Source: an uncultured bacterium | Lineage (GTDB): Bacteria; Bacillota_I; Bacilli_A; RF39; UBA660 | NCBI GenBank assembly: GCA_948433885.1 | Contig: CAOJEC010000004.1 | Location: forward strand, 1-49,775 | DNA length: 49,775 bases | Direction of reading: 5' to 3' | Shown: positions 19,148 through 38,353 of the stretch, piece after piece | Layout of the letters: each line of letters opens with the position of its first letter | Numbering within the stretch: position 1 is the first letter of the stretch | Position numbers and translations under genes: made by a program | Notes under the pieces: model-generated | What the model was told of the DNA's origin: nothing | Databases searched by the model: none | Seen by the model: the letters and a program-made list of their open reading frames with translations, nothing else

Positions 19148-19153
19148 TTATAT

Positions 19154-19270
19154 AGCAAGATGTGACTAATGTAATGTCTTGCTGCTAATGTATATTCATG
19201 ATTATTATGGAATACATTAGAACCAAAACCCCCTGAAGAGGACACGACTTAATGTGTCCTCACTTTTTTT
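19154..19270 (+). ncRNA. Putative small structured RNA (unidentified) containing the integration core
   Basis: Bounded by a consensus promoter and the terminator GAGGACAC/GTGTCCTC+T7. Internal hairpins AGCAAGA/TCTTGCT and CTAATGTA/TACATTAG. No substantial ORF. Confidence 0.45.
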
Positions 19271-19320
19271 GCCCTAAAATAAAGGGATTTGTGGATTTGA
19301 TATATCTTTGATGATTGTTT

Positions 19321-19369
19321 TAGGCGACATCTAGGCGACAATTTATAAAAATAGTGACATCTAGGCGTA
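19321..19369 (+). repeat. Integrase arm-type repeats (left end of element 1)
   Basis: TAGGCGAC at 19321 and 19332; partial TAGGCG at 19362. Confidence 0.7.
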
Positions 19370-19421
19370 GTTAATGTGATTATAGTGGTGTATAATATAG
19401 ACAATGAAAGGAAACGTGTGT

Positions 19422-20135
19422 ATGGATAATATTGAAATGTTACAAAAGATAATAGATGAATCAGATAATATTGTGTTCTTTGGAGGAGCTGGTGTTTCTA
19501 CTGAAAGTGGTATTAGAGATTTTCGAGGAGATAATGGTTTATATAAAGATAAGAATAATTATGAGCCAGAGTATCTATTAAGTTCAAAGTGCTTTCATAA
19601 TGAACCTGAAGTTTTCTTTGATTTTTATAAGAATAAGATGAATTGTTTGGATGCAGTACCTAATGTAACCCATTTGTACTTAAGTAAACTAGAGAAACTT
19701 GGAAAACTTAAAGCAATTGTTACTCAGAATATAGATGGATTGCATCAAAAGGCTGGAAGTAGTAATGTTTTAGAAATACATGGAACTATTCGTAAGAACT
19801 ATTGTATCGAATGCAGTAAGGAATATGATTCGGATTTTGTTTTTAATAGTAATGGGATACCTAAATGTGATTGTGGAGGTATAATTAAACCTAATGTTGT
19901 ATTGTATGGTGATATGTTACCAGAGGCATTTTCTATTGCACAAGACTATATAAGTAAAGCTGATACTTTAATTGTGGCTGGTACATCATTGACAGTAGAA
20001 CCTGCGAGTAGTTTGGTTAGATTATTTGGAGGTAAGAATTTGATTATTATAAACAAAGACAAAACCCCATATGATAAGTTTGCAACATTAGTAATTAATG
20101 ATAATTTATCTAATGTGTTTGGAAATTTACATTAG
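19422..20135 (+). CDS. cobB: Sir2-family NAD-dependent protein deacylase
   Basis: GAGVSTESGIRDFRG, TQNIDGLHQKAG, EIHG, Zn ribbon CIEC..CDCG, KPNVVLYG, GTSLTVEP. Confidence 0.88.
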   Translation: MDNIEMLQKIIDESDNIVFFGGAGVSTESGIRDFRGDNGLYKDKNNYEPEYLLSSKCFHNEPEVFFDFYKNKMNCLDAVPNVTHLYLSKLEKLGKLKAIVTQNIDGLHQKAGSSNVLEIHGTIRKNYCIECSKEYDSDFVFNSNGIPKCDCGGIIKPNVVLYGDMLPEAFSIAQDYISKADTLIVAGTSLTVEPASSLVRLFGGKNLIIINKDKTPYDKFATLVINDNLSNVFGNLH

Positions 20136-20247
20136 TATAGTGCTTAGAGTCTGCAACACCGAGGACTATGAGTTCTATACAATTGATAGAAAGTTAGATT
20201 TTATAAGGGTTTAACCAATGTGTTAGACTCTTTTCTTTTGTTCAAGT

Positions 20248-20273
20248 GTATCAAAAACGTATCAAAAGTATCA
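20248..20273 (+). repeat. GTATCAAAA direct repeats (11-bp period)
   Basis: Copies at 20248 and 20259, partial copy at 20268; preceded by a hairpin with T tract (20205-20239). Confidence 0.55.
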
Positions 20274-20521
20274 GTTTTTTATGAAATGTAACAAGAATAA
20301 TTGAAAGTTTAATTTTATTTCGTATATTAAGATAGATGATTATATGATCATCGGTATTTGCAGCACAGATTTTCAACTTAGACACGAGATTGGGCGTGCT
20401 TATATGAGAGCACATTTTACCTCGTTAAACGCACTTATAATAATAATACTAAAGATATTAACAATTCAAATTCAAATCTAAATTTAAATTTAAACAAACA
20501 TTTATTTTTAAAGAAAGATTA

Positions 20522-20605
20522 TTTTACAGGTAGATATTATTTTTACAGGTATTAATTTAAACTAAAAAAACAAAAGAAAGAGATTGAATCAATGTTTTAC
20601 AGGTA
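20522..20605 (+). repeat. TTTTACAGGTA x3
   Basis: Exact copies at 20522, 20541 and 20595 next to an AT-rich tract (20460-20500). Confidence 0.6.
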
Positions 20606-20913
20606 ATTTATATAGAGTATGAGTAATAGAATGGCATTGATTAACTAAATAGAGATAAAACTATTTAGAAGATAGTATCGACGTATGAAGAAACAAGATT
20701 CATATATGCAGATATAGAGAAATTATTTTATTTAAAGACTGATTTGAGTGATCAAGATTCTGAGCAGCTTGTTCACTCGAATTAAGTTATTCTTAAAACG
20801 TGCTTAATTTGGGTTAAACTGGTTTTGATGGGTATTTGATTAACCTGTTTAGAACAACTTCACAACGGGCTTAAAAACTGGTTAAAACTTTGTGATTTTG
20901 AAAGGATTGATGG

Positions 20914-21327
20914 ATGATGTGTAAGGATTGGTTGATAAAGATACAAAACCCTCTTACAAGATGTAAATTAGTGATTTATGAGGATGGACGTTTCTATGTT
21001 GACGGTAGTGGACCTCTAATTGGATACTTAAAAGTTGGAGCCCTTAGAGAAATAAAGAGCTTAATTGATGAGTTTTTACCAACCATTAAACAATATGGCT
21101 ATCATGTTCAAGAAAAAGATGGATTCATAGTAAAATTTTGGGATAATAGCAACATGAAACGTGATGATCTTAAGGTTAAAGGTTGGAAATATGAATATCA
21201 TCTTTTGAGAATATTGTTCAATGAGAATAATATTCGTAAGTTCAAGATAGATATATCTGATTTTTACTCTATTATGGAAACTTTTTTAGGAACTACGTTC
21301 GATGAGGAGCGTTCAAATGAAAGATAA
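20914..21327 (+). CDS. Hypothetical protein
   Basis: 137-aa ORF with RBS AAAGGA; no family recognised. Confidence 0.6.
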   Translation: MMCKDWLIKIQNPLTRCKLVIYEDGRFYVDGSGPLIGYLKVGALREIKSLIDEFLPTIKQYGYHVQEKDGFIVKFWDNSNMKRDDLKVKGWKYEYHLLRILFNENNIRKFKIDISDFYSIMETFLGTTFDEERSNER

Positions 21328-21763
21328 AACTTGGTTAATTATGCTTATTAAAGAGCAAACTGATGGAATTTATACTGTAACGATTACTGAAGATGGTTAT
21401 GTTTTAGATAACAAGAAGAAAAAAGTAGTCGTTTTGAAAAAGTCAACTATGGAAGAACTTAATAAACTGATGATTGAGTATAAAAACCCTAATTTAAGTG
21501 ATGATTTTGATTCAAAATGTATGGTGAAATTCAATGGTGATACTAATAAGTTCACGAGTAATGATAAGGAACTCTATTCTAAAATCATTGATATAGTTTT
21601 TAAAGAAGATAATATTAAGCATCCACCTAAGTTGCTAGATTCTGCGATATCTTTAATTGAAAGGTTGCGAGCAACTGGAGAGCTAGATGCAATGATTCAA
21701 GCAGATGGTAAGGATGCAACAATAGATGCAATACTTGCTATATGTCAGTTAGAAAACGAATAA
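21317..21763 (+). CDS. Hypothetical protein
   Basis: ATG 21317 after GAGGAG, overlapping the previous gene. Confidence 0.6.
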   Translation: MKDKTWLIMLIKEQTDGIYTVTITEDGYVLDNKKKKVVVLKKSTMEELNKLMIEYKNPNLSDDFDSKCMVKFNGDTNKFTSNDKELYSKIIDIVFKEDNIKHPPKLLDSAISLIERLRATGELDAMIQADGKDATIDAILAICQLENE

Positions 21764-21880
21764 TAGATTACTTTTCAACTATATAAACTAACTTTAATTG
21801 AATTAAATGATTAATAATTTATAACTATATTGCTAATTCTTTGATTTAGAGTTAATTATAAAATCAAAGGAGTTAGAAAT

Positions 21881-22240
21881 ATGAAAGAAAGAATAATAGA
21901 AAATGATAAATTGATATATGATAAAATCCAACTCCCTAAGCACAATTACATTACTTTAAACTTACTGATTAAGAGAAAGTTTGTTAAGGAAGATGATATC
22001 GAAACTTTTATGTATGATGCTCTGTTTGAAGAATTACTGCAACAATACGATTTTCAAATTATTATTGTTACTGCAAGTTATGTTATATCGAAAATAAAGT
22101 CGAACAAATTTCGTGATGAAGATGGGAAAGAGATTGAATGTTTATATGCTTATTTCCGTCATAGTCTAACATGGAATTTAAAGAGACTTACTGGGCAAAT
22201 TAGACTTAGTTGGGAGGAAGATGACGATGACTATGGATGA
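21881..22240 (+). CDS. Hypothetical protein (C-terminus loosely resembles replication-initiator/DnaD-type helical domains)
   Basis: RBS AAGGAG; IECLYAYFRHSL segment; weak resemblance only. Confidence 0.5.
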   Translation: MKERIIENDKLIYDKIQLPKHNYITLNLLIKRKFVKEDDIETFMYDALFEELLQQYDFQIIIVTASYVISKIKSNKFRDEDGKEIECLYAYFRHSLTWNLKRLTGQIRLSWEEDDDDYG

Positions 22241-22507
22241 TACTAGTAAGTATCTTTTATTCTAGTTTTTTATTAAGGGGCTGTAATTTTTAAAACTTAT
22301 GGTATTATACAAGCTAGGTGATGATTAAACATTTCAAAATGTTGAGTTAACTAAATGCTCATTTCCTTTCAAACTGTGATTGTAATATAAATCCATACAA
22401 TTTAATTCATTGCCTGTTAAAAGAGGTCTAATTCTTCTACAAACTAAGAAAGTTAGAACTTTTTTATTTACTTTAAAGTGTTGTAATTCATGAGAGGAGG
22501 AACAGAT

Positions 22508-22720
22508 ATGAGACCAAGTGAAGAAGTTGAGAAGATTAAGAAATTATTTCCTGTAGGTACAAGAGTTAGATTGATTCAAATGGATGATTCACAAGCAGTA
22601 CCTAGTGGTATTTTAGGAGCTGTAGATCATATTGACGATGATGGACAAATCCATATGAACTGGGACAATGGTAGAACTTTAGCTTTAATATATGGGGTTG
22701 ACCAGTTCGAAATTGTTTAA
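22508..22720 (+). CDS. DUF4314-domain protein
   Basis: FPVGTRVRLIQMDD..PSGILGAVDHIDDDGQIHMNWDNGRTLALIYGVD. Confidence 0.8.
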   Translation: MRPSEEVEKIKKLFPVGTRVRLIQMDDSQAVPSGILGAVDHIDDDGQIHMNWDNGRTLALIYGVDQFEIV

Positions 22721-22917
22721 TAGTAAGTTAGTTCTAAGTATTTGACAATAATTGAAAGCATTTTAAAATTACAGCAATTCTAGTGTCTAGAATTAGAAAG
22801 GAGAATTTGTTTATTATGAAGATTACTTGTAGAGTTTTAATTTAAATAATAAACTTACAATAAAGGCTGTATTTCTTTCGAACTTATGGTATATAAACAA
22901 GCGGGATGGTGATTTGA

Positions 22918-23145
22918 ATGAAGAAATTGTTATTAAATAATCCTAGTCTTAATGTGATTAAGGAAAAATTATCTAATGATTTACCCGAAGAAATTGAAAT
23001 AACTTTCAATAACAAAGTAGACAATGGTATAGAGTTTGTGATAATGGATTATTTAATTAATTCTGCTGGATATTCTATTGAAGAAGTAAAGCCAATAGAT
23101 GATTCAAAAGCAATGTATATTGTTTACTTTAAAAGGAAGAGTTAG
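22918..23145 (+). CDS. Hypothetical protein
   Basis: 75-aa ORF downstream of a repeated promoter motif. Confidence 0.5.
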   Translation: MKKLLLNNPSLNVIKEKLSNDLPEEIEITFNNKVDNGIEFVIMDYLINSAGYSIEEVKPIDDSKAMYIVYFKRKS

Positions 23146-23447
23146 TTCTCTTCCTTTTTGCCTTCTAATAACTTTTGATTTTCTTCCCAATATTCCCAAT
23201 AGAAATTTGGATCTTGTTCATACAATTCAATTGCACCACATAGAACCTCTAGTGATGGTCCGATTTCAGAACTTGGTGCTTCAATTCTTTTAAGCGATTC
23301 TGGTTCTATTCCAAGTGCAGGAGCTGCATCTTTTACTTTGATATTAGCGAGTTTTCTTGCAATACGCATATTCTGACAAATATTCTTTTTTACACCACTA
23401 TAATCTATCAATTGTTCATCAGTATAAGAGTGATTATTTCTACCCAT
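23142..23447 (-). CDS. XRE-family HTH regulator
   Basis: NMRIARKLANIKVKDAAPALGIEPESLKRIE; RBS GGAGG; divergent from 23554. Confidence 0.7.
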   Translation of the reverse strand: MGRNNHSYTDEQLIDYSGVKKNICQNMRIARKLANIKVKDAAPALGIEPESLKRIEAPSSEIGPSLEVLCGAIELYEQDPNFYWEYWEENQKLLEGKKEEN

Positions 23448-23553
23448 AAAACAACCTCCACAGTATTTATTATTTTCTCATAATTATCTTGAAATGACGG
23501 TATCTTCAAATGTTACTAAATTTGTGATATAATATTCTTGAGGTGGTGTTTTT

Positions 23554-24189
23554 ATGAGTAAAATTTCTAATGGTGAGGGGTTTATCTATGTATATCCGTG
23601 TATAATGGGTGGTACAAAGAATCTTTGTAAGATAGGTGTAACTGACAATTTTAAGGAAAGGATGAGTCAGCATGTTCGCACTCCATATCATGGTTTCAAT
23701 TGCATGCTAAACTACCCTAGTTATAAACCTATTGCTACGGCTTTTCGAGTTAAGTCTATGAATATATCTGATAACTTAGTTAGGGATTATTTTAAAGATT
23801 ATCAATTGGCAGGAATCGAGGTATACAATATCAATTATAATGTTAGTATCCAAGAACTATATAACCTATTGTATAAGCACAACCAGTTTATTGAACTTAT
23901 AGAAGATAAGACTACTGATTATAGTTTTCTTGTACTAGAAGAAGAAGTTAAAATTGATACAACTAAGTCAGTTTTTGAAGAACTTAGAGATAAAATTTTA
24001 TCTAAGTATAATGATGAGCTACCAGATGAACTGCTTTTACTTCTAAGAGATGGTGAAGAATTTAAAACGCATTGTCCATCTCACAAAAATTTTATTGAGT
24101 TTCGAGATGGATTAGTATTAGATATTAGTGTTTGTAAAGCTAGTCGTGCTTTATTGCTAAATAAGTTACAAGAAATATTAAAGGAGTGA
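23554..24189 (+). CDS. GIY-YIG-like T5orf172/MUG113-domain protein
   Basis: GFIYVY...LCKIGVTDNFKERMSQH. Confidence 0.65.
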   Translation: MSKISNGEGFIYVYPCIMGGTKNLCKIGVTDNFKERMSQHVRTPYHGFNCMLNYPSYKPIATAFRVKSMNISDNLVRDYFKDYQLAGIEVYNINYNVSIQELYNLLYKHNQFIELIEDKTTDYSFLVLEEEVKIDTTKSVFEELRDKILSKYNDELPDELLLLLRDGEEFKTHCPSHKNFIEFRDGLVLDISVCKASRALLLNKLQEILKE

Positions 24190-24470
24190 TTTTTATGTTT
24201 ACTGATTGTTTTGAGGACAGGATTCTAATAATTTTGGAATCAATATTTATTACATGTTCGGCTGTTTTATTATTTCCTTATAACAAAATGATTGCAGTTG
24301 ATATTTGTAGAGCAACACAAATACCCTATGATCTAGTTTTATCAGTTACATCAGCTGGATTTGGTAACAACATTATTATATTGTTATTTGTTGTTGAGAT
24401 TGTATTAGTTGTTCTATTTATTGAAAAATTTATTCCAACATGTATTGAAAGATTAGTTTGGGATTATTGA
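24186..24470 (+). CDS. Small membrane protein
   Basis: Two hydrophobic segments; overlaps upstream stop (GTGA). Confidence 0.45.
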   Translation: MIFMFTDCFEDRILIILESIFITCSAVLLFPYNKMIAVDICRATQIPYDLVLSVTSAGFGNNIIILLFVVEIVLVVLFIEKFIPTCIERLVWDY

Positions 24471-24490
24471 TTTTAAAGGAGTTGTATGTT

Positions 24491-25138
24491 GTGAAAAAGA
24501 AATTAATTATTTTAGGAATTATTATTATTCCAATTATTACTATTATTGCTATGCAAATACCAAAATGGACTAATCAGAATAAGTTTAAAGAGATATTTGA
24601 TGATACTTCTATACTGGCAAATGGATATACCTATCATGGTCTTACTTATTTAGACATCCACTCTAATCAGTTTAGAATGAAATATAGTGATTATGATACA
24701 AAAATTGTTAAAGGATCTGACATAGAAATCAAAGGAACTGTCAAAGTAAAGGATTCTAATACTTTAATACTTACCTATGATGGTGGTTCGATAACATGTT
24801 CAGTTTTAAATATTAATGTTTTAGACTGTGATGGTGCAGTTTTTAGAAGATATGATGGTCAATATGGGGATGAGAAAAAATGTGAATTAAGTCCTACCGA
24901 GTCAGAAAATGTAATTGCTGCTGGTTGGGATGATGCTTATGCAAATAGACAGGGTGCTAGTTATAATAACCCTTATGAGAAAACTGATCCTTGTTATCAA
25001 GAATATGATGGTGATTATTATACAGGTGTTTATAATGGTTACTTAAGAAATAAAATGTCTGTTAGTACCTATGAAATAATAGTAAAGGGACATAGTTGTT
25101 TAAGTATGGATGGCAACTGCTACAATGTTAAGAGGTGA
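24491..25138 (+). CDS. Membrane-anchored/secreted hypothetical protein, Cys-containing
   Basis: GTG 24491 after AAGGAG; MKKKLIILGIIIIPIITIIA N-terminal anchor. Confidence 0.65.
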   Translation: MKKKLIILGIIIIPIITIIAMQIPKWTNQNKFKEIFDDTSILANGYTYHGLTYLDIHSNQFRMKYSDYDTKIVKGSDIEIKGTVKVKDSNTLILTYDGGSITCSVLNINVLDCDGAVFRRYDGQYGDEKKCELSPTESENVIAAGWDDAYANRQGASYNNPYEKTDPCYQEYDGDYYTGVYNGYLRNKMSVSTYEIIVKGHSCLSMDGNCYNVKR

Positions 25139-25144
25139 TAAATT

Positions 25145-26227
25145 ATGAGTAAGAAACAAATTAAAAATATTGATGTAGATCAGGATATTGTTAAACCTAT
25201 AAAGAAGAAAAATAAGCATATTTTATTAAAGGTTCTTTTAGTTATTATAATTGTTATAATACTATTCTTTAGCTATAGCTTTATTAAGCAGAAGTTATAT
25301 CAAACTAGAAGTCAGAAGATGACTGAGGAGGTTAATGAGATACAAAAGGATAAGGTAGATTATGTTTTTATTGAGATTAACCCTTTTCTTGTTCTAACTA
25401 TTAAAGATGGTACTGTAGAAGATGTGGCATGCCTTAATGATGACTGTGTTTCCATTTATAATGAAATCAAAATTGCAGGTAAAAATATTGATGATAGTAT
25501 TGATTATTTATATGATTTAGCCAAGTCAAAAGGTTTTGATACTTCTAATGGAGTTAAAGTTAGAGCAACTGGAAATGTATATATTGAGAAAAAGGATTAT
25601 GTTATTGTTGAGTATATTTCAGTAGCAGATAAAGAGGTATTGCTAGCTGATTTGAAGAACAATGAGAGTATAAAAAATAGTAATAATGATGGTTATTACA
25701 CTACCCTATGGGATAAGTTAAAAGCAGATGGTGACTATGGTGATGTATATTCTTGTAGTATGAATAATGAAGAATTAGAATGTTATTTTACTGAGAAATT
25801 TATATCGAATATTTTTGATGAAAAACAACTAGTTTTAGATTACGTAGGATTGGAAAATCAAATCAATAAGTTTTTCAATACACTTGATAAATTTAGAATA
25901 AAACACACAAAGAAAGATGATACCGAATATATTTCCATTAATTATAATGAATATGTTGCTACAGGTAGTATTCAAATAGAAGATAAAGAGATATTAGCTA
26001 ATGTTTTATCGAGAAAAATTGAACATCAGAATTCAAGTTCTTCTTATGAGGAATGTTTACTTGCCGATACATATGAATACGTTGATTTGAAAGATTTTAA
26101 TCTTTTAAATCCTAATGATGCTAATAAGATTAAAAGATATACACCTGAGCGAGTAATTAAAGATTGTAAAGAAGTAGAAATGATTAATAATTGTTTGACT
26201 GGTAATGGTCCATGTGATTTAGAATAA
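25145..26227 (+). CDS. Membrane-anchored protein with RsgI-type juxtamembrane domain
   Basis: Single TM, then VFIEINPFLVLTIKDGTVEDVACLNDD...GKNIDDSIDYLYDLAKSKGF, resembling the RsgI (V/I)xIDINP...ALNED...L..KGY domain. Confidence 0.6.
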   Translation: MSKKQIKNIDVDQDIVKPIKKKNKHILLKVLLVIIIVIILFFSYSFIKQKLYQTRSQKMTEEVNEIQKDKVDYVFIEINPFLVLTIKDGTVEDVACLNDDCVSIYNEIKIAGKNIDDSIDYLYDLAKSKGFDTSNGVKVRATGNVYIEKKDYVIVEYISVADKEVLLADLKNNESIKNSNNDGYYTTLWDKLKADGDYGDVYSCSMNNEELECYFTEKFISNIFDEKQLVLDYVGLENQINKFFNTLDKFRIKHTKKDDTEYISINYNEYVATGSIQIEDKEILANVLSRKIEHQNSSSSYEECLLADTYEYVDLKDFNLLNPNDANKIKRYTPERVIKDCKEVEMINNCLTGNGPCDLE

Positions 26228-26236
26228 GAAAGAAGT

Positions 26237-26917
26237 GTGATGGTTATGTTTAAGATTATATTAGGTTTGGTTCAGCAACATATTGCTGCAACTATTATTG
26301 TTAGTGTTGTAGTGGTAGTTGGTGCTGTTGCTACTCCTGTTATCTTATTGAACGTCAAAGATGAACCAAAGCCAAATAAAGATATTAAAGAAGAAGTTAA
26401 ACAAGATGATCAAGAGGCGGAGGTCATAGAACAAGAGCCCGAATTGAACGAAGATGGGTGTCCTGTAGGTTTCTTTTTGAACTACTATGGTATATGTCAG
26501 GATGAGCACCTTTACGAGCCACAGGAGTGCCCAGATGGTGAAATGTGGTGGCCAAATAATATGGCAGAGTATACTAAAGATAATGGTGATGGAACTGTGT
26601 CACCAGATTATGAGGCTGCATTTGGTATTGATGGTTTACCTAAAGGAATTTGTGTAAGAGATTATGAAGCACAAGATGCTTGGTATAAGTCACATGGATA
26701 TCCTGGTATGAATCCAAAGGATAGAGAATTATATAATCATATTAATGATTGTGAACGTGGTTTTAGTTATGATTCAGATACAAAGACTTGTGTAGATAAG
26801 ACAGCTTGGTATCGTATGAGATATGAGAAAGAAGTTCTTAGTAAACATGATCCAAAGGATGATTTACCAAAATGTTCTGAACGATCTGAAACTGATCAGG
26901 CTTGTCTTAAGGATTAA
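26237..26917 (+). CDS. Membrane-anchored Cys-rich extracellular protein
   Basis: N-terminal TM, acidic linker, repeats GCPVGF..GIC, ECPDGE, DCERGF..TC. Confidence 0.6.
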   Translation: MMVMFKIILGLVQQHIAATIIVSVVVVVGAVATPVILLNVKDEPKPNKDIKEEVKQDDQEAEVIEQEPELNEDGCPVGFFLNYYGICQDEHLYEPQECPDGEMWWPNNMAEYTKDNGDGTVSPDYEAAFGIDGLPKGICVRDYEAQDAWYKSHGYPGMNPKDRELYNHINDCERGFSYDSDTKTCVDKTAWYRMRYEKEVLSKHDPKDDLPKCSERSETDQACLKD

Positions 26918-27052
26918 AGAGATATTTAATATAAGTCATATTAATGAGAAAGAAGCACTTAACTAGTTGCTTCTTTTACCAATTGTATGGCTGTAATAAT
27001 AATTATTTATGGTATAATTTGTATAATGAAATATAGTTAGGAGGTTACCAAT

Positions 27053-28033: not shown

Positions 28034-28110
28034 ACATTAGATTTAGTTTTTAACTATACCTTCTTTGTGATGATTTGACTTTTTCTTTTTGTAAAAGGAA
28101 GTGATTTAAG

Positions 28111-28554: not shown

Positions 28555-28636
28555 TTTGCTTCTATTGAGGAATAGGGATACAAATATTAATTATTTATGG
28601 TATAGTTTAAGTATGATTAAGGAGGTTATTGATGTG

Positions 28637-29608: not shown

Positions 29609-29798
29609 TTTTTACTTTCTTTTTAAGATAGATTTCACAATCTATCTTTTATTGGCACTAAAATCGTTGCAATTAGTTGTAGAACATGGTTAAACAAAGA
29701 AGAGCTTATATTCTGCTTATATGTTTAACTATCTAAGATATGGTCTTCAATGGGCCAATAATGGGGTTAAATTGTAGCTCTTATTTTTTTACCTAGGG

Positions 29799-29914
29799 GT
29801 GTCAAATTAAACTATTGATTAATTGGACACTCATGTTAAGGGGAAATTATATGTCATTTAAGCGGAAAATAAGCCAAAACTGTCTAATAAATTCAAACAG
29901 GGATTTTTTGGACA
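29799..29914. promoter_or_regulatory. Putative res site of the serine resolvase
   Basis: GTGTCAAATT..AATTGGACAC (29799-29830) and TGTCTAA..TTGGACA (29881-29914) imperfect dyads directly upstream of the resolvase. Confidence 0.55.
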
Positions 29915-29936
29915 CTTGGAGAAAGGATTGATTATT

Positions 29937-30554: not shown

Positions 30555-30582
30555 GAAGCTACTTTTTGATGGTAGCTTCTTT
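30554..30582. terminator. Bidirectional terminator between convergent genes
   Basis: AAGAAGCTAC / GTAGCTTCTT. Confidence 0.65.
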
Positions 30583-31961
30583 TAATTGATTTCTTTCTTT
30601 TGTTTGTTTCTAGATCTGTTTACTCGTTCTCTATTTAATGCTGCTTTGTGTTTTTCAAAACATTTATCACATAAATATCCTCCTGTTTCAATAGGATGAG
30701 CACTTTTATCTATTTGTTTTTGACAAGCATTGCAATATGGTATTGGAGAATTTATTTGTAAATTGCCTAAATAGTCATGATAAAATGTGTCCCAAGCAGC
30801 AATTGCAATACTCTCATATTCTGTTACATTTCTAAAGACTGTATTGTAATTTTTTGTATATGGAGTCTTTTTTTTATTTATTTCTAATTTCAAACTTCCA
30901 ATTGAGTTAAAGTTATTCATTATATAATTGTTATATTTGTCTGCTTGTTCAATCAAGTCTATTATATCTCTAGCCCATGATCCCATAGTTGACTTTAAAA
31001 ACTCTAAGTCCTTTTGTTTATCATCATTGATTTTTTTTAAAGTAGTGTATTCTTCCCATAGACTATACAATAAATACATTACAATACTTATAGTAATAAG
31101 TCCATTAACTGATATTGTATTATTAGCATATTCTTGTAAGCTATATGAATTTGATTCTGGGGCATTCTCTTTCCATTGAGGTATTATTAACTGTCCATCA
31201 GTAATGATCATGCTTTTAGTATATTCAGCAATTTTTTTGCGTTCAGTCCAGAATGGCATTCCAAATTCTTTACACCAATTTATTATTGCTTCAGATATCT
31301 TTATTGCTTCCTTATTATCTGTTCCATTTCCATTTATTAATATTCTGTCAAATAAATACTTTATAGTAAATGGGATATACTGCATTTTACTTATAAGTGA
31401 TCTACAATTGCACTCATCTACAATGTCTAAAATTTTACTTAATATAGTATTATAAGCTCTATTTATATCTTCTAGAGACTTTGATTTTTCTCCAAAACTT
31501 TCATAGTAATCCATTGTGGCTTTATCAATATCACATTTTATCTGAATGGGTATGTATATTAATTCATTTGGAGAAATTTTTTTGTATTTCTTAAGCAAAT
31601 TAAATGCTTCTTTATAAAATTCAAACATTGAAAGATAATGTGAGTGATTTTTGTCTGTTATTGATTTGAATTCGTTAATATAGTCCTTAATTTTTTTATT
31701 AATAGTTTTTTTATCTTTTGGATTGTCAATTTTGATTGTCATATCAACATTATATATTGAATATTTTTCTTCTGCTTCTTTGATAATTTCATATAACGAT
31801 TTTCCTAGTTCACAAGTTTGTTTAACTAGATAATGAGTATTGAATTTTTTATCAATTACACTTTCACTTTTATAACCAGTTAACAATATATTTTCCATAT
31901 CAATACTTAAATTATATTTTTTATATTTTTTTACACTTTTTATCAAAACAATTGATTCCAT
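30582..31961 (-). CDS. Hypothetical protein with C-terminal Zn finger
   Basis: YCNAC...LCDKC followed by a basic tail RERVNRSRNKQKK. Confidence 0.6.
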   Translation of the reverse strand: MESIVLIKSVKKYKKYNLSIDMENILLTGYKSESVIDKKFNTHYLVKQTCELGKSLYEIIKEAEEKYSIYNVDMTIKIDNPKDKKTINKKIKDYINEFKSITDKNHSHYLSMFEFYKEAFNLLKKYKKISPNELIYIPIQIKCDIDKATMDYYESFGEKSKSLEDINRAYNTILSKILDIVDECNCRSLISKMQYIPFTIKYLFDRILINGNGTDNKEAIKISEAIINWCKEFGMPFWTERKKIAEYTKSMIITDGQLIIPQWKENAPESNSYSLQEYANNTISVNGLITISIVMYLLYSLWEEYTTLKKINDDKQKDLEFLKSTMGSWARDIIDLIEQADKYNNYIMNNFNSIGSLKLEINKKKTPYTKNYNTVFRNVTEYESIAIAAWDTFYHDYLGNLQINSPIPYCNACQKQIDKSAHPIETGGYLCDKCFEKHKAALNRERVNRSRNKQKKEIN

Positions 31962-32121
31962 AAGGGCTTAAGCTCCTTTCTTTTTTGCTCAAAATAATTA
32001 TGTAATGCTATTGTAATGCTTATTTTTATTGTTTGTCAATAGGTCATGAGATAATTTTCTTGTCAAGCACCAATGCTGCGCAGCTTTATGCTTGTAATAA
32101 AAAATTAAGGAGGTTGAATTT

Positions 32122-32610
32122 ATGATAGATGATAAATTCATAGTCGATGGTAATGACTTTAAATATTTACCTTTAAAAGTAGCTTACTATGCTAGATCTT
32201 TAGGATCCAACCATGATAAAAGACTTAAAGGAAAAATTTGCTTGATAGAGTTTTATGTTAAAGCGGAAACAACCTGGAATTTAGTTGTTGGATACGAAGA
32301 TAATAATTGCTCTAGTCAATATATAGGTGAACAATTTGAACTAGAAGAATTGTTAGAGGATGCGGATAATCCTATATTTGATTTAATAGTTGTTGATAGC
32401 TTTTCTCAAATTTCAAGAAATAAAGAATATATCAATTACTTGTTAGAAGATGAAGCACTTAAAGTCCCAGTGTTCTGTATAGACACTGAAACAATAATAA
32501 GTAGTAATCCGAAAAATTTAAAAGATACCTTATTTTATGATGACAAAGTAAGTGTAAGTGATTACTATATACATCCAAATAATGAGGTGTGCAATGAAAA
32601 TTCAAAATAG
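32122..32610 (+). CDS. Degenerate serine-recombinase catalytic-domain homolog
   Basis: KVAYYARSL..WNLVVGYED..S..LEELLEDA...FDLIVVDSFSQISRN; the catalytic Ser position is Leu. Confidence 0.55.
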   Translation: MIDDKFIVDGNDFKYLPLKVAYYARSLGSNHDKRLKGKICLIEFYVKAETTWNLVVGYEDNNCSSQYIGEQFELEELLEDADNPIFDLIVVDSFSQISRNKEYINYLLEDEALKVPVFCIDTETIISSNPKNLKDTLFYDDKVSVSDYYIHPNNEVCNENSK

Positions 32611-33760
32611 ATTCAAGAAAGATAGGTTTATGACTGTGCACGATCAGTTTGTACTAGATTTGTACAAATTAAATACTGCCTTACCTCGATTCACTCTTAG
32701 AGAGAAGATAATTAATGGTGAAAAGTATCTTATTAACTCATTTGTTGAGAAGAATAAATACGAAGTTGGGATAGCAGTTAAAATTCCTAGAGAGTTGATT
32801 TCTATAGGTGTAAATCTTGATAGGTTTACTCATCCTGTTGAAGATGAGTATTCTAGGTTTTATGAATCTATGAAAGAGAGATTACAATTCTCTGAAGCTG
32901 AAATATTAGTAACAAATATTCTATTCAGTAAGTATTTAAGTGAGTATTATGCTATTAATCAAATCTCATTTAAGGATATTGAGAGATATCGTAGTAAGTC
33001 ATCATCTAAGCGAAATATTGTTTTAAATGAAGATACTTTTAAGAGATATAAACATATAATTGATAGTTTATGTGCTAAGACAATTTACCTTAAGACAGGT
33101 GATGTTAGACATCCTACATTTGGTGTTAATAATCGAAATATAATGCAACCATTTCTAGTAGTTACTTCTAGATGTATGACTGGCGTAACCAATATGCAAT
33201 TTAATTATTCTTTTGGAAACTTTGGGAAGTTTATTAAACGTTCTAGAAGATATTCTAACAATTTACCAAACATAGCCTATAGTTATAATTTTAAGCAAGC
33301 TAAGAAACATTGCACAGCTATATATGTTGCACAGGAAGTATTTTGGCAAAATTATAGGATTAAGAAGAGAGCTAAGAAGTTTGCTCCACCTGGTGAATTT
33401 GATTTCATTATAGAAGTAATGCCAATTTGTGAGTGGGTTTATGGTAGATATAACATTACTACAAAGGAATATAGACTTGTTCTAGGTTACATTGAAGATG
33501 TACTAAAGATGTTACAAGCTACTGGTGAGATTGGGGAATATGTTGTTTCTGAAAAGATTACTAGAAAAAAGCATACAACTTTCAATGTTAAAACTACCTT
33601 ACAAAAGTTATATGCTAATGGTCTAAATGAGGGTGCAAAACTTTTATTAGGATCAGCTCACTATGAGAATGATTTAGATGCAGATTGTACACCTTCAAGT
33701 ATTTCCTCAATGGTTGTTTTGAATTTAGGACAACATAAAGTTGAGACAGAAAATACATAA
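32594..33760 (+). CDS. Hypothetical protein (candidate replication initiator by position)
   Basis: Basic ~390-aa ORF directly before the helicase-like gene; no motif recognised. Confidence 0.5.
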   Translation: MKIQNRFKKDRFMTVHDQFVLDLYKLNTALPRFTLREKIINGEKYLINSFVEKNKYEVGIAVKIPRELISIGVNLDRFTHPVEDEYSRFYESMKERLQFSEAEILVTNILFSKYLSEYYAINQISFKDIERYRSKSSSKRNIVLNEDTFKRYKHIIDSLCAKTIYLKTGDVRHPTFGVNNRNIMQPFLVVTSRCMTGVTNMQFNYSFGNFGKFIKRSRRYSNNLPNIAYSYNFKQAKKHCTAIYVAQEVFWQNYRIKKRAKKFAPPGEFDFIIEVMPICEWVYGRYNITTKEYRLVLGYIEDVLKMLQATGEIGEYVVSEKITRKKHTTFNVKTTLQKLYANGLNEGAKLLLGSAHYENDLDADCTPSSISSMVVLNLGQHKVETENT

Positions 33761-33838
33761 AGTTAAGTCATTATTGTGGCTGTAAAGTTAAGAAAATAAA
33801 GGGGTTGTGCTCTTTATATAAGAGCTTATAAGAAAGGG

Positions 33839-35341
33839 ATGATTTATATGAATAAAGTACCAGAAATCAGCAAAGGATTGTTGAAGATTCTTAATTCTCC
33901 ATGGGATAATAAAGAATTAATTAATTATATACAAGACTTATTTAAAGCAAAAGTTTTAAGTAAGGATGAGATAATACTCTGTAAAAATATAATAGAGCAG
34001 GTTGAAGTCAAAAGTAGTGTAAGTATTAGCAGCGCATTTGCAGAATTAAAAATTTATTGTAATTGGGAACGCGATGCTCGTTATGAAAAGAAAGACTTGC
34101 AGTTTGTATCAGACTATTATCTTGGAGGAAGAATCGAGAGCCAACTAAAGGAACAAGCAAGAGTTGCTTTTAAAAATTCAGGTGACAAAGTATTTAACGG
34201 AACCGATACATCGTTATTCTTTAATAGATATACTGATGTAATAGGTGTTAAGCAAGAGACAACACTTGAGGATTTCTTAAGTCCATTTGATAAAGTTTCT
34301 ATTGAAGAAAATAATTTAGTATTAACTTGTGAATCTATTGATAAACTTCTCAATGGTGGTCTTATGGGAGGACAGGTTACTACTATTCTTGGGGATTTGG
34401 GTGTAGCGAAAAGTTTATGGAGTTTAAATATTGCTTATAATGCTATCTCAGAGGGGAAGAATGTTCTTTACTTCTCACTTGGATTAAGTAAACAAGAGCT
34501 CAATAAGAGATTTATATTAAGGCATTCATATGATCTTAAGTTTGAAAATGAACTTATTTATGATGAAGAAGAACCCTGTGATAAAGAATTATTAGAAGAG
34601 GTATGCAAAAACTTTTACAATAACTTATCTGGTAATTTAATAGTTTTTGATGAATCTTATTTTGATATTAGTACAGCACGTAGTTTACTAAAATTATTTG
34701 CAGTTGCTGAACGTGATTTTCAAAAGGTAACTCAACATGGCATTGATTTAGTAATTATAGATGACTTTACCTATATGAAACTGGACAATGGCTTAAAGTT
34801 GATAACTACTAAAAGTAAGATTCAAGATGAATACTATTGTTTTCTTAGAAATCAAAGCAAGAATTTACTTGGTATGAAAAGGATGATACCTATCGTGGTT
34901 ACATATAGTATCGATAAGAAATATTATAGTTATTTCAACGAAAATGATACATTTGGACAATTTATGATTCCTGAAATTATAGAGTCTTTAAGTGATAATG
35001 TATTGGCTATACGCTTGGATAATAGTCAACAATTGAAAATTACATTAGCAAAGCCTCATGCTAAAGGCGACGAAGATTATTGCTTTGAACCTATTGATGC
35101 ATGTATTCAAAATTGGTATTTGGGATACAACAACGAGGATGAGACTCTACGGGTTCGTAGGATGGGTTTAGTAAAAGACGAAGATTCTGAAGAACCTGAA
35201 GAGTTTGGTAGTATTTCCACAGCAAAGGTTACTAATGGATTTATGGATAAGGAAACAATTAAAGCTCTAATGATGGGCAAAGATATTGAAAATACATCTA
35301 AAGATGTTGAGGGATCTGATTCATCAGATAGCGAAAACTAA
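33839..35341 (+). CDS. DnaB/RecA-fold helicase-like protein
   Basis: IDKLLNGGLMGGQVTTILGDLGVAKS (variant Walker A), VLYFSL, LVIIDD (Walker B). Confidence 0.65.
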   Translation: MIYMNKVPEISKGLLKILNSPWDNKELINYIQDLFKAKVLSKDEIILCKNIIEQVEVKSSVSISSAFAELKIYCNWERDARYEKKDLQFVSDYYLGGRIESQLKEQARVAFKNSGDKVFNGTDTSLFFNRYTDVIGVKQETTLEDFLSPFDKVSIEENNLVLTCESIDKLLNGGLMGGQVTTILGDLGVAKSLWSLNIAYNAISEGKNVLYFSLGLSKQELNKRFILRHSYDLKFENELIYDEEEPCDKELLEEVCKNFYNNLSGNLIVFDESYFDISTARSLLKLFAVAERDFQKVTQHGIDLVIIDDFTYMKLDNGLKLITTKSKIQDEYYCFLRNQSKNLLGMKRMIPIVVTYSIDKKYYSYFNENDTFGQFMIPEIIESLSDNVLAIRLDNSQQLKITLAKPHAKGDEDYCFEPIDACIQNWYLGYNNEDETLRVRRMGLVKDEDSEEPEEFGSISTAKVTNGFMDKETIKALMMGKDIENTSKDVEGSDSSDSEN

Positions 35342-35484
35342 TATTAATAGGTTGACTTTAAGACCTATTTAAGTGATATATGTAAAGAATTTTAACTAGT
35401 TTTAGCTGGTTAGCACTCAAAAATAATCCAATAGGGTTGCTGGTGATTTTGCAGCAACTATGAATGAAGAAAGGGTGATTTATA

Positions 35485-35814
35485 ATGGATTATGATATGT
35501 TAAATATACAAAAAGAAGTAACTAATAAAAGGGGGTTGGATTATATCCAAGCAAGTGATAAGAAAGATATGGATTATGTGGAAATGTTAGAGTTAATATC
35601 TAAAGTATGGATAGATGCTGACGATATAATGAGGTTGGCGCAATGCGGAAAACATAGTGCAACTAATATAAGGAATGAAATCGAGGAGCAGATAATAGCA
35701 AGTGGTAAGAATGTTCCAACAGGAGCTCGCAAATGTGTTCCTACGAAGTTAGTTCTTGAATATTTAGGACTAGATATTGATTTCATTTGTAGTATGGCGG
35801 AAAGGTTAGCTTAA
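35485..35814 (+). CDS. Putative excisionase/DNA-binding protein
   Basis: Immediately upstream of the integrase; homologous to 39336-39572 (W.D.DD.M.LA..GK..A..(I/L)R.EI). Confidence 0.55.
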   Translation: MDYDMLNIQKEVTNKRGLDYIQASDKKDMDYVEMLELISKVWIDADDIMRLAQCGKHSATNIRNEIEEQIIASGKNVPTGARKCVPTKLVLEYLGLDIDFICSMAERLA

Positions 35815-35825
35815 GGTGATGTGGT

Positions 35826-36941
35826 GTGTCTGTTAGAAAAGTTAATGAAAAAGAATGGACTAAAGATGGTCGTAAATATGTGTATGAGGGATGGTATAAA
35901 GATGCCTTTGGCAAGAGAAAACCTTACAAGTCAAGAAAATATCTTACTAGAAAAGAAGCAGTACAGGAAGAAAGAGTTTTTCTTTCTTCTCTTGAAACTG
36001 TAGTTAAGATGGAAGATATTACGTTCAAAGAATTGTGTGATAAACATTTTGATTATAAGCAAAATGCCAAAAAGGTTAAGGTTACTACATTGCGTAATTA
36101 TAATAAAAGACAACAACATTTAGAAATATTTAATGATGTTAAGCTAAGTAAATTAAGTATAGCGCAGTTCGATGAATGGAAGAAGATGATGAACGAAACA
36201 ACTATGGAGACTTCTACTAAAAATGATTTATACAAATACTTTAGAAGCGTTCTTCATTTTGGAACTAATCGTTATAATTACAATTTTACAGAATTACTCA
36301 ATATGATGAATAATTTTGATGATCCTAATGAGAGTCCAAAAGAGATGGAGTTTTGGACGAAAGCAGAATTTGATAAATTTATCTCTGTTGAAACTGATCT
36401 TCAATTTAGAGCAGCATTTGAAACATTGTACTATTGTGGATTGCGATCCGGGGAACTTAGGGGACTTACTTGGTACGACATAAATTTTGAAACCAAAGAA
36501 TTGTCAGTAAATAAGAATATAACTGTTAATTTAGATGGTAAGAAATATGTTATAACAACGCCTAAGACAAAAAGTAGTAAAAGAAAACTTACGATGCCAG
36601 ATATACTAGTAGAAGATTTAAAAAAGTTAAGAAAAATGCAAAATAATTATTGTGAATTTAATAATAATTGGTTTGTATTTGGTTCTTATGAACCATTAGG
36701 AAAATCTAGGCTAAGAGACAGAAAGAATAAGAACTGTAAATTAGCTGGAGTAAAGCAAATAAGAATTCATGATTTTAGACATAGTTGTGCGTCCTTGTTA
36801 ATCAATAATGGGGCTAACGTAACAATTGTTGCTCATTATCTAGGTCATACAAAAATAGATGAAACTTTAAATACTTACACTCATATGTTTAAAGATAAAG
36901 CAGAAGAAGTTACAAGAATGATAAATCAGTTAAACAGGTAG
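35826..36941 (+). CDS. int: Tyrosine integrase (element 1)
   Basis: GLRSGE (R), TPKT (K), IHDFRH, LGH, TYTH (Y); N-terminal arm-binding domain. Confidence 0.92.
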   Translation: MSVRKVNEKEWTKDGRKYVYEGWYKDAFGKRKPYKSRKYLTRKEAVQEERVFLSSLETVVKMEDITFKELCDKHFDYKQNAKKVKVTTLRNYNKRQQHLEIFNDVKLSKLSIAQFDEWKKMMNETTMETSTKNDLYKYFRSVLHFGTNRYNYNFTELLNMMNNFDDPNESPKEMEFWTKAEFDKFISVETDLQFRAAFETLYYCGLRSGELRGLTWYDINFETKELSVNKNITVNLDGKKYVITTPKTKSSKRKLTMPDILVEDLKKLRKMQNNYCEFNNNWFVFGSYEPLGKSRLRDRKNKNCKLAGVKQIRIHDFRHSCASLLINNGANVTIVAHYLGHTKIDETLNTYTHMFKDKAEEVTRMINQLNR

Positions 36942-37016
36942 ATTTATTGTTCTTTTTTTGTTATAATGAGTGTATGTTAATCAACAAGAAGTATTATGAT
37001 TTTTCAGGTGATGGTT

Positions 37017-37078
37017 TAGGCGACAACTTAGGCGACTAGATAAGTAAAAATGTGTGCATTTTGATGAATTTAGGCGAC
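37017..37078 (+). repeat. Integrase arm-type repeats (right end of element 1)
   Basis: TAGGCGAC at 37017, 37029 and 37071, same orientation as at 19321. Confidence 0.7.
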
Positions 37079-37151
37079 AATTGAATTTGTGTTTTGCCCA
37101 TAAATAAAGGTATGAGCAAGACGGTGGAGTCCTTAACAGCCACCCCCTGAA

Positions 37152-37184
37152 ATCCCAGCCGAAAGGCTGGGATACTTTGTTTTT
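37152..37184 (+). terminator. Terminator immediately after the second core copy
   Basis: ATCCCAGCC-GAAA-GGCTGGGAT plus T-rich tail. Confidence 0.75.
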
Positions 37185-37214
37185 AAGGGCTCCAAGCCAT
37201 TTTGTATATGTATT

Positions 37215-37235
37215 AGGTACCCAAATAGGTACCCA
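37215..37235 (+). repeat. AGGTACCCA direct repeat pair (arm-type sites of element 2)
   Basis: Copies at 37215 and 37227, just past the int2 stop. Confidence 0.6.
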
Positions 37236-37237
37236 TT

Positions 37238-38353
37238 TTAATTTAAATTGTCGATAATGTTTATTATTTCATTCATTTGATTTTTAAATAGGTGAGAATA
37301 TGTGTTTAATGTCTCATCTATTTTTGTATGTCCTAGATATTTTGCAACTACATTTATTGTTGCGCCACTATTAATTAAAAGTGATGCACAACTATGCCTA
37401 AAATCGTGAATTCTAATTTGTTTAACTTCTGCTAACTCACAATTTTTATTTTTCCTACATCTTATTTTACCATTTGTAATAGGTTCAGTATCTCCAAAAA
37501 CATACCAACTATTGTTAAATCCATAATGATTATTAGAAACCCTATATAATTCCTTTAAGTCATCTAATAAAACTTTAGATATTGGAATATTTCTAACACT
37601 TGACTTTGTTTTAGGGGTAGTAACCATATAAGATTTATCTTCATCTCCTCTAGTTGCTACAACATTTTTATTTACACTTAAATAACTATTTTTAAAATCA
37701 ATGTCATTCCAAGTAAGCCCACGAAGTTCACCACGCCTTAAACCACAATAATATAAAGTCTCATACATAGTTTTATACAATATGTTATCTTCTACGGAAA
37801 TAAACTTTTTAAATTCATCATAAGTAAAAAATAACATTTCTTTTGGAATTTCGTTTGGATTAGTAAAATTAGTCATTTTATTGTAAGTTGCAGTGAAATT
37901 AAAATTGTACCATTTAGTGGCATAGTTTAATAATTCTTTAAAGAATTTAAATAGATGATTTTTATGATTCGTTGTATAACCATAAGAATTAATCTCTTTC
38001 TTCCATTTTTCAAAGTGTTCTATATTAAAATCCTTTAGTTTTACATTTTCTAGATTTTTAAAGAATTTTTGTCTATCTCTATAAGTCTTTAAAGTAGTGA
38101 ATTTTACTTTATCTTCTTTATAGGCATAGAAGAGAGTATATAAATCTTTAAAAGTCATATTACGATCTTTATCTGCTCGTTCAGTATTGGTTGTTAGAAA
38201 CTCTCTTTCGGCTTTTAATGCCTCTGGTTTCGTAAAAAACTTCTTTGACTTATATTTTCTTCTAGTTCCATCTAAATTCTTTATATAGTCATAAAATATC
38301 CATTTGCGCCCATCTTTTGTCCAGTCTTGCCTTTCTAATTGTTTAACTGCCAT
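37238..38353 (-). CDS. int: Tyrosine integrase (element 2)
   Basis: GLRRGE, TPKT, IHDFRH, LGH, TYSH; closely related to int at 35826. Confidence 0.92.
   Translation of the reverse strand: MAVKQLERQDWTKDGRKWIFYDYIKNLDGTRRKYKSKKFFTKPEALKAEREFLTTNTERADKDRNMTFKDLYTLFYAYKEDKVKFTTLKTYRDRQKFFKNLENVKLKDFNIEHFEKWKKEINSYGYTTNHKNHLFKFFKELLNYATKWYNFNFTATYNKMTNFTNPNEIPKEMLFFTYDEFKKFISVEDNILYKTMYETLYYCGLRRGELRGLTWNDIDFKNSYLSVNKNVVATRGDEDKSYMVTTPKTKSSVRNIPISKVLLDDLKELYRVSNNHYGFNNSWYVFGDTEPITNGKIRCRKNKNCELAEVKQIRIHDFRHSCASLLINSGATINVVAKYLGHTKIDETLNTYSHLFKNQMNEIINIIDNLN

Follow-up and report, generated by a model that had tools for sequence, protein, structure and literature searches.

A conserved small-RNA-like gene as the probable site of tandem accretion of two integrative elements in an uncultured, RF39-like member of the Bacilli

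Islands and prophages that target tRNA or tmRNA genes rebuild the 3' end of their target gene, and in enterobacteria, small RNA (sRNA) loci such as ryeA/ryeB of Salmonella are hotspots of insertion. The lambda and HK022 integrases share arm sites and differ in core specificity. Islands related to phage-inducible chromosomal islands (PICIs) and Staphylococcus aureus pathogenicity islands (SaPIs) carry an integrase, a regulator and a replication helicase. In streptococci, the accretion of ICEs (integrative and conjugative elements), integrative and mobilizable elements (IMEs), cis-mobilizable elements (CIMEs) and their decayed relatives at one attachment (att) site is well documented, with ICESt1/ICESt3-related elements and IME_Sag2603_tRNALys as examples (PMC5704250). 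Here, we describe a locus on contig CAOJEC010000004.1, of which positions 1 to 49,775, the whole stretch of DNA that was analyzed, are referred to as the window. Directly downstream of leuS, two integrative elements, termed E1 and E2, are arranged in the order core-E1-core-E2, each with its own integrase gene (int1 and int2). It is very likely that these related elements accreted in tandem at the 3' end of an sRNA-like gene via a shared core and with distinct arm repeats. The contig originates from an uncultured, low-GC bacterium whose leucyl-tRNA synthetase (LeuRS) is 83% and 81% identical to those of L007 and L008, two metagenome-assembled genomes (MAGs) labeled “uncultured Bacilli.” The host lineage is Bacilli, “Tenericutes”/RF39-like, and almost all sequencing runs containing the window sequence are mouse-gut metagenomes.

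Exact copies of the 10-mer ACCCCCTGAA are located at positions 19228-19237 and 37142-37151 of the forward strand, and no further copy exists on either strand of the window (chance expectation 0.06; two or more matches in 0 of 100 shuffles). As reported in a first-pass annotation of this DNA, each copy is followed by its own terminator, with a hairpin and a T-run at 19238-19261 and 37152-37173. The first copy is the attL core of E1, while the second represents both the attR of E1 and the attL of E2; both assignments are supported by the exact repeat and by alleles that lack E1. Such alleles were found on seven contigs (L213, L214, L215, L217, L219, L220 and L221), which are independent assemblies from seven samples of the same species. 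In BLAST comparisons with the window, their matches end at 19237 and start again at 37142, overlapping by 10 nt; their int2 protein is identical and int2 adjoins leuS. An E1-free site would read TTAGAACCAAA-ACCCCCTGAA-ATCCCAGCCGAAAGG, and the alignment reads GAACCAAAACCCCCTGAA continuing directly into ATCCCAGCCGAAAGG. Contigs from runs X26, X27 and X29 also depart from the window at 19237 and continue with ATCCCAGCCGAAAGG. The arrangement containing both E1 and E2 was found independently in L206 and L209. As the E1-free alleles join 19237 to 37142 through one 10-mer, E1 is a 17,914-bp insertion bounded by the 10-mer, which occupies 19238-37151 including one core copy and is precisely absent in other strains. 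These alleles demonstrate that E1 is gained or lost site-specifically at the 10-mer, and they establish its exact boundaries. The GC content, at 35-40% in the leuS flank, falls to approximately 29% between 19.2 and 37.1 kb, and to approximately 25% from 37.1 kb to the window end, and these steps coincide with both core copies.

An imperfect repeat, TTTTGCCC-N5-TAAAGG, had been noted near both ends of E1, and the first-pass annotation had pointed to the empty site in relatives as the place where the crossover could prove to lie elsewhere, for example at this motif. Both copies are present on the forward strand. The sequence TTTTGCCC-TAAAA-TAAAGG at 19267-19285 forms a CCC-AT-GGG quasi-palindrome on the P' side and recurs after the terminator in many elements, and TTTTGCCC-ATAAA-TAAAGG, identified by sequence match at 37092-37110, is situated on the P side, approximately 32 nt before the core. 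The copies agree at 17 of 19 positions, a match longer than the 10-mer, so that the latter might have been incidental to a crossover within the longer repeat. However, the E1-free alleles retain the sequence up to 19237 and resume at 37142 without either motif copy, and the E2 terminator follows directly after the 10-mer. The motif is also found in elements and phage-like attP sites with other cores. A crossover at the motif is thus refuted by the E1-free alleles and retains practically no probability; the crossover of E1 lies inside ACCCCCTGAA. Integrase relatives in IMG/VR with at most 43% identity exhibit an attP layout of arms, motif, core, motif and arms around other cores. As it is present in att sites with other cores, the TTTTGCCC motif can be regarded as a family-wide accessory att feature. 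Three of the predicted viral contigs in IMG/VR (L332, L333 and L339; integrases 29-43% identical to int2) carry an apparently unintegrated attP beside int. In this attP, the arm repeats are paired, each side has a palindrome of the CCCTTATTTTATAAGGG type, and the core differs.

A point that escaped the first-pass annotation is that the core constitutes the 3' part of a conserved sRNA-like gene. This gene, the integration target, is located at 19154-19270 on the forward strand, with its 5' end inferred from a promoter at 19119-19147 (forward strand; TTGACA-17-TATCAT, 11 of 12 consensus matches) whose position is conserved in comparators. The predicted transcript of approximately 115 nt comprises two hairpins, a single-stranded linker (AACCAAAACCCCCUGAAG; unpaired over 17 nt, AACCAAAACCCCCUGAA) and a terminator, which is here derived from E1. 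Folding of the sRNA-like gene yielded -39.6 kcal/mol (z = -7.65) with the att core unpaired, and an alignment of 61 copies revealed compensatory changes at 11 of 11 predicted pairs of the two hairpins. The succession of leuS and the sRNA-like unit is also found in L007 and L008. A scan of one genome per species identified the 17-mer AACCAAAACCCCCTGAA in at least 119 genome stretches (comparator loci L087-L205), nearly all from MAGs of uncultured Bacilli, “Tenericutes” or Erysipelotrichaceae; about 100 of these listed stretches share the promoter and hairpin layout of the gene. No Rfam family matched at the gathering threshold in the window, permissive Rfam searches with two sRNA copies returned only chance-level matches (E above 0.09), and ARAGORN detected no tRNA or tmRNA at the target. 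Runs labeled “RNA-Seq” contained long, DNA-like contigs of the E1-free allele, which are uninformative on expression of the sRNA. Taken together, the structure predictions and comparisons identify the target as a conserved, unannotated, structured sRNA-like gene with its own predicted promoter in over 100 uncultured Bacilli MAGs, and the att core as the predicted unpaired, C-rich 3' segment of this gene. Speculatively, G-rich Shine-Dalgarno regions could be pairing partners of the C-rich linker (CCAAAACCCCCUG), as is the case for RoxS/RsaE-type sRNAs.

The position of the core in the 3' part of the sRNA-like gene explains why every element has a terminator of its own: the element rebuilds the 3' end of this gene. 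The terminator supplied by E1 extends from 19238 to 19270 on the forward strand, and a homologous terminator with compensatory changes exists in L008. The terminator supplied by E2 (37152-37186, forward strand; hairpin followed by a T-rich tail) is identical in the E1-free alleles.

The arm repeats described for both elements were also recovered. E1 is bracketed by TAGGCGACA repeats, which are all present in direct orientation: its P' arm region (19321-19369, forward strand) contains exact copies at 19321 and 19332 and a degenerate pair, TAGTGACA/TAGGCGTA, at 19352-19369, and its P arm region (37017-37079, forward strand) contains exact copies at 37017 and 37071 and a variant with one mismatch, TAGGCGACT, at 37029. 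The P' arm region of E2 (37214-37235, forward strand) consists of two copies of TAGGTACCCA at 37214 and 37226, and its copy number varies, with one copy in L213 versus two in the window, L214, L217 and L007. Contigs bearing int1 tend to break at 37229-37234, inside the E2 arm repeat. The left end of E2 is confirmed by the E1-free alleles and by L007, a different species (LeuRS 83%, integrase 94% identical to int2), in which the same junction of ACCCCCTGAA and ATCCCAG is found directly after the sRNA.

Both integrase genes code for tyrosine integrases of 371 amino acids with HDFRHS...LGH...NTY motifs. The int1 gene (35826-36941, forward strand; PF00589, E = 5e-25) is located at the attR end of E1 and reads toward the core, while int2 (37238-38353, reverse strand; PF00589, E = 3.5e-26) is located at the attL end of E2, which is the usual family layout. 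The closest solved structures for int2 are 6EMY/6EMZ, described as “Int protein” (E = 7e-12), and XerA/XerD are also among the PDB matches. The two genes converge on the junction, as had been stated, whereas the supposed near-identity of their C-terminal parts did not hold. The proteins share 51% identity overall, with 39% for residues 1-60, 42.5% for residues 61-180, 53% for residues 181-295 and 70% for residues 296-371, and 90% is reached only at approximately residues 300-330. The location of int1 at the attR end and on the forward strand is an oddity of E1 within the family. Elements with TAGGCGA-type arms share this layout: L283 and L288 carry forward-strand genes after attL, and L137 exhibits the same 2+1 arm layout at attR. 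The gene block of E1 is inverted relative to the usual family layout, and E1 also holds a serine recombinase of the DNA invertase type.

Comparator loci established the att architecture of the family. Directly after the core come an element-specific terminator and then a quasi-palindrome of the form CCC-(A/T)8-10-GGG (e.g., TTTGCCCATAAATAAAGGGTTTG). Two direct repeats are next in order, and in most cases a minus-strand integrase homologue. The direct arm repeats of 9-11 nt differ between elements and include TAGGTACCCA, TAGGTACAAT, TAGGTGGCAT, TATGTGGCA, TTATGTAACAG, CTAGATACCA, AACTACCAA and others, so that the same core is used by numerous elements, frequently arranged in tandem, whose arm repeats are of about ten kinds. 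L133 represents a complete, minimal element of 2.2 kb: the same arm repeats are found close to either end, and a terminator comes after its second core. Scanning other MAGs for TAGGTACCCA pairs retrieved 76 attL-type and 18 attR-type sites. In the latter, three arm repeats precede CCCCCTGAA by approximately 108-115 nt, and a “cttattttataagg” motif, analogous to the P-side motif of E1, is found approximately 55 nt before the core. In L187, a further copy of CCCCCTGAA was dismissed, as it sits in a chance hairpin loop. At least six of the 18 attR sites run straight into an element of another arm type, including the E1 type TAGGCGA(C/T)A in L283 and L288, and analogous mixed arrays are present in L238, L241, L250, L283, L288 and L324; tandem arrays with mixed arms are therefore common at this hotspot. 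Apparently unoccupied sites, at which the sRNA is followed by AT-rich sequence without motif or arm repeats, were identified in other MAGs (L113, L118, L120, L199 and L202). By these comparisons, the sRNA-like gene is a hotspot for integrases of the int1/int2 family in more than 100 Bacilli MAGs. The initial proposal that two separate elements accreted at one hotspot, with a shared core and different arms, is borne out by the E1-free alleles together with the comparator arrays.

E1 fits the family att layout on both sides. This fit bears on the possibility that a spontaneous deletion between microhomologies of 10 bp, instead of integrase-mediated recombination, produced the E1-free alleles and that E1 is not a site-specific element. 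In principle, a direct repeat of 10 bp could allow slippage or microhomology-mediated deletion. However, the repeated 10-mer is the same core that is used by more than 100 related elements in other species, and E1 exhibits a full lambda-type att layout with arms on both sides and an intact integrase. The attR of L137 shows the same arm-motif-core layout, and the attL sites of L283 and L288 show the same arm type followed by forward-strand genes. A deletion origin is thus very improbable, and E1 is best regarded as a site-specific element.

The proposed accretion can be described by the following model. The sRNA linker contains the attB core that lambda-type tyrosine integrases of a large family use, and integration crosses over within ACCCCCTGAA, thereby swapping the terminator of the sRNA for that of the element. 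Because the element-carried terminator replaces the original one, the sRNA gene would stay intact. The attP of the family consists of arm repeats, CCC-AT-GGG motif, core, terminator, CCC-AT-GGG motif and arm repeats, with TAGGCGACA arms and int1 at the attR end in the case of E1 and TAGGTACCCA arms and int2 at the attL end in the case of E2. Their tandem order would result from the integration of one element at the att site that the other had created. Probably, E2 was resident first and E1 then entered the attL of sRNA::E2. Following the lambda paradigm, each integrase would bridge its own arm repeats and the shared core, and the second element would integrate at the hybrid att site left by the first. 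Each integrase may read its own arms only, and each element would then recombine only its own attL and attR; given 5 differing positions out of 10 between the two arm repeats, we infer that each integrase assembles only on its own attL/attR pair.

Several observations, which concern excision, arm binding and the right end of E2, weigh against this reading. Circular junctions had been suggested as a check, and an E1 circle (attP) would be expected to contain the joint CTTAACAGCC-ACCCCCTGAA-GAGGACACGACTT. No attP circle junction or joint was present in the Logan contigs of runs X1, X2, X3, X4, X5 and X9 (assembled contigs, 10-16x), and the depth of E1 equals that of its flanks. As assembled contigs drop rare variants, the missing circle joints represent weak negative evidence. 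Empty-site joints were absent from Logan contigs compared with 19000-38500 and 37060-37240 (contigs only, no raw reads). An exact LeuRS look-up found no allele free of both elements in the same species and retrieved only E1-bearing or broken contigs. In addition, the arm-binding domain PF14657 (Arm-DNA-bind_4) scores 21.8 bits in int1 and 17.3 bits in int2, both under the cutoff of 22.3 bits.

With regard to arm specificity, the repeats of E1 and E2 both start with TAGG, and cross-recognition is possible. Moreover, a clade that is just 52-55% identical to int2 in residues 1-60 also adjoins TAGGTACCCA repeats, which suggests that recognition tolerates much divergence and that arm specificity does not simply track N-terminal identity. 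The two arm sets might therefore not be orthogonal, either because the integrases cross-recognize them or because the arm differences reflect neutral drift, and the array could also be movable as a composite via its outermost att sites (cis-mobilization); for streptococci, the transfer of accreted elements as a composite has been documented (PMC5704250). Half of the ten repeat positions differ, however, and only E1 was seen to vary independently, with E2 staying in place. Mixed-arm tandem arrays are common, as would be expected without interference between neighbors. We therefore consider a lack of orthogonality unlikely, and orthogonal arm use by int1 and int2 is plausible on the basis of the repeat sequences. 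A broader proposal can be made tentatively and with considerable doubt. The sRNA of RF39-like gut Bacilli would serve as a common landing pad at which integrases keep the core and diversify their arms (about ten or more variants) as an anti-interference adaptation, so that each element excises only itself.

The right end of E2, which had been expected beyond the window, was not located. E2 extends over at least 12.6 kb. To the right of 37235, the window contains neither a third core (up to two mismatches) nor a further TAGGTACCCA, and in X1 and X3, two metagenomes in which the complete window is present at even depth, no contig shows anything at least 85% similar to either canonical attR form of the TAGGTACCCA type (queries from L247 and L295). 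Without a cognate attR in the window, X1 or X3, E2 cannot be shown to be complete.

Near the window end, the 5' third of a gene for a GajA/OLD-like ATPase is present at 49237-49620 (forward strand; PADLOC GajA E = 5e-13, profile positions 1-130 of 574), cut at approximately residue 128 of 570-600. An in-frame fusion joins it to the final 19 codons and the stop codon of a third integrase gene (IDETLNTYSHMFKN...; 49621-49680, forward strand), a fragment that is 84% identical to int1 positions 36855-36897. In run X14, the same 43 nt of this integrase fragment are preceded by an intact integrase coding sequence (...VAKYLGHTK). The chimeric ORF (open reading frame) at 49237-49680 codes for exactly the same protein on 18 public contigs. 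An insertion of E2 into an integrase gene at 49621 was considered and rejected, as the junction contains no core-like sequence and a split int2 would require the fragment to be on the opposite strand. Just beyond, at 49722-49775, a multicopy repeat begins, at which the window and all public contigs break. Depth rises at 49722 from 11 to 178 and from 16 to 778 (overall range 6- to 48-fold relative to the flank), a high-depth unitig of 1,439 nt starts at this position, and several different left contexts join at 49721; for these reasons, the window is considered to end in a multicopy repeat, most simply explained as an insertion sequence, which it probably is. All public contigs end within 95 nt of the chimeric ORF, at 49749-49775, and the 34-mer at the window end was not found in the genome collection or the JGI metagenome collection.

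The fusion of the GajA-like gene with the integrase fragment is read as a deletion scar. The deletion would have taken the right end of E2, the next core and most of a third element with E1 layout, and would have left E2 without a cognate attR, so that E2 may be unable to excise any more. The array would then consist of an active E1 and a decayed, immobile relic with only an attL, rather than of two independently excising elements. The truncated gene, the repeat inserted 41 nt beyond the fusion, the missing cores and attR sites, and the presence of E2 in every strain seen are in line with this scenario. On the other hand, int2, the helicase gene and the small ORF of E2 are intact, and the int2 protein is identical across 14 contigs. 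Between strains (L213-L221 versus the window), E2 is 99.1-99.97% identical compared to 96.6-98.9% for the chromosome on the leuS side, which hints at either a recent spread of E2 or recombination spanning the locus. The true right end lies beyond the assembly break, and a divergent attR may exist. The evidence for and against decay of E2 is evenly balanced; tandem accretion of two elements at the sRNA-like gene remains the preferred reading of the locus as a whole.

The gene content of both elements was analyzed by profile searches. In E1, a Sir2-family protein is encoded as cargo close to attL (19404-20135, forward strand; PF02146, E = 1.9e-52), and further cargo comprises a T5orf172 protein and a DUF1810 gene. 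The latter is flanked by two paralogous ORFs (27053-28033 and 28556-29608) with 70-74% nucleotide identity over the aligned repeat stretches. A serine recombinase of the DNA invertase or resolvase type (29916-30554, forward strand) and a second, shorter resolvase-like ORF (32122-32610) were identified by profile matches, as was a DnaB-like (superfamily 4) helicase (33839-35341, forward strand), which is a putative replication module. Between the helicase gene and int1, a small protein is encoded (35485-35814, forward strand) that shows no family match and is, by its position, a candidate excision or directionality factor. In E2, int2 is accompanied by an AAA_25/DnaB-like helicase gene (38356-39324, reverse strand) and by a small ORF (39336-39572, reverse strand) that is homologous to that of E1 (37% identity, E = 4e-17). 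The integrase, the DnaB-like helicase and the small homologous ORF, which could act as a directionality factor judging from its position, are thus common to both elements. A gene for a cI-like helix-turn-helix (HTH) regulator and the cargo of E2 extend over 39788-49107 (forward strand), with profile matches to DUF3795, MazG, a uracil-DNA glycosylase (UDG)-like protein, DUF3800, a second HTH protein, a mad2-like methyltransferase, a PDC-S02/DUF1016 nuclease, an inositol monophosphatase and 2-Hacid_dh. Within this region, approximately 100 nt (42224-42322) are missing in L213 and L218, which shortens a transglutaminase-like ORF (42217-43038) from 273 to 201 amino acids.

PADLOC returned no convincing match for the cargo of E1. 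Among the ORFs scanned (30 with Pfam, 10 with PHROGs), no relaxase, coupling-protein or type IV secretion system family was detected; several ORFs are matchless, and a novel mobilization protein is possible. The same scans revealed no capsid, terminase, tail or lysis genes in E1 or the visible part of E2, and no packaging genes were recognized there; only the integrase, regulator and helicase module is satellite-like. The description that fits E1 and E2 best is that of integrative islands equipped with a replication module, and membership among IMEs, ICEs, prophages or PICIs is not established.

The chromosomal flank shows two further features. In leuS (16208-19060), a NUDIX domain is inserted at approximately 17288-17783, with the Nudix box at 17447-17515 (GGIEGDENPIEAAKREIIEETGY), and the corresponding PF00293 match is located between synthetase segments of LeuRS in the Pfam listing. 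Many related LeuRS genes of Bacilli are approximately 150 amino acids shorter and match over only 2.4 kb (L035, L037-L041), and full-length LeuRS matches reach as far as Patescibacteria. On the reverse strand at 9324-12373, Pfam matches indicate a non-homologous end-joining operon with Ku and LigD (ligase and primase-polymerase).

Tandem accretion at RNA-gene hotspots is a main route for island build-up and module exchange, and the present locus provides a case at base resolution from an uncultured gut lineage with almost no genetics. It reveals a conserved, structured sRNA that is in no database, as well as a family-wide att grammar of core, terminator, CCC-AT-GGG motif and variable arms. The Sir2 protein, the PDC-S02 nuclease, the mad2-like methyltransferase and the GajA-like remnant suggest that the hotspot is also an exchange site for defense genes. 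Furthermore, the locus yields a hypothesis open to testing, namely that stacked elements stay independent through the divergence of their arm sites. Should orthogonality hold, the family would supply several integrases directed at a single short attB, with mutually orthogonal integrase/attP pairs useful for genome engineering.

The closest parallel is found in streptococcal accretion, in which an incoming element enters the attL or attR of a resident, resulting in element-att-element arrays whose partners are often decayed and whose excision can be modular (PMC5704250). In contrast to these arrays, the target described here is an unannotated sRNA gene and not a tRNA gene or the 3' end of a protein-coding gene, the host belongs to uncultured RF39-like Bacilli, and the two integrases are 51% identical yet adjoin different arm repeats. 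Unlike in streptococcal ICEs and IMEs, no relaxase, oriT or conjugation genes were recognized.

The integrases resemble the heterobivalent integrases of the lambda family (lambda, HK022 and the Int proteins of Tn916/Tn1549) in their PF00589 domain, the weak match to an N-terminal arm domain, and the direct arm repeats that flank a short core, and the small neighboring ORF could act as Xis. The arrangement is the converse of that in lambda and HK022, as one core is common to many integrases and the arm repeats are diversified. As in islands at tRNA and tmRNA genes, the core belongs to the 3' part of a gene for a small stable RNA, a replacement 3' end (in this case a terminator) comes with the element, and the hotspot is multiply occupied, but the target RNA is neither tRNA nor tmRNA according to ARAGORN and belongs to no Rfam family. 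The locus further shares with ryeA/ryeB the accumulation of horizontally acquired DNA at an sRNA gene, whereas phylum, RNA and integrase family differ, and core, arms and empty alleles are defined here at base resolution. Similar to PICIs and SaPIs, E1 and E2 are small islands without structural genes, with an integrase, a DnaB-like or primase-type helicase and, in E2, a cI-like repressor divergent from the int-proximal operon; in contrast to these, no packaging, terS or capsid-remodeling genes were recognized and there is no known helper phage. In conclusion, the locus exhibits a known behavior, site-specific accretion, at a new target. New aspects are the unlisted, conserved sRNA as target, the lineage of the host and, at the level of the family, the combination of a single core with numerous arm types.

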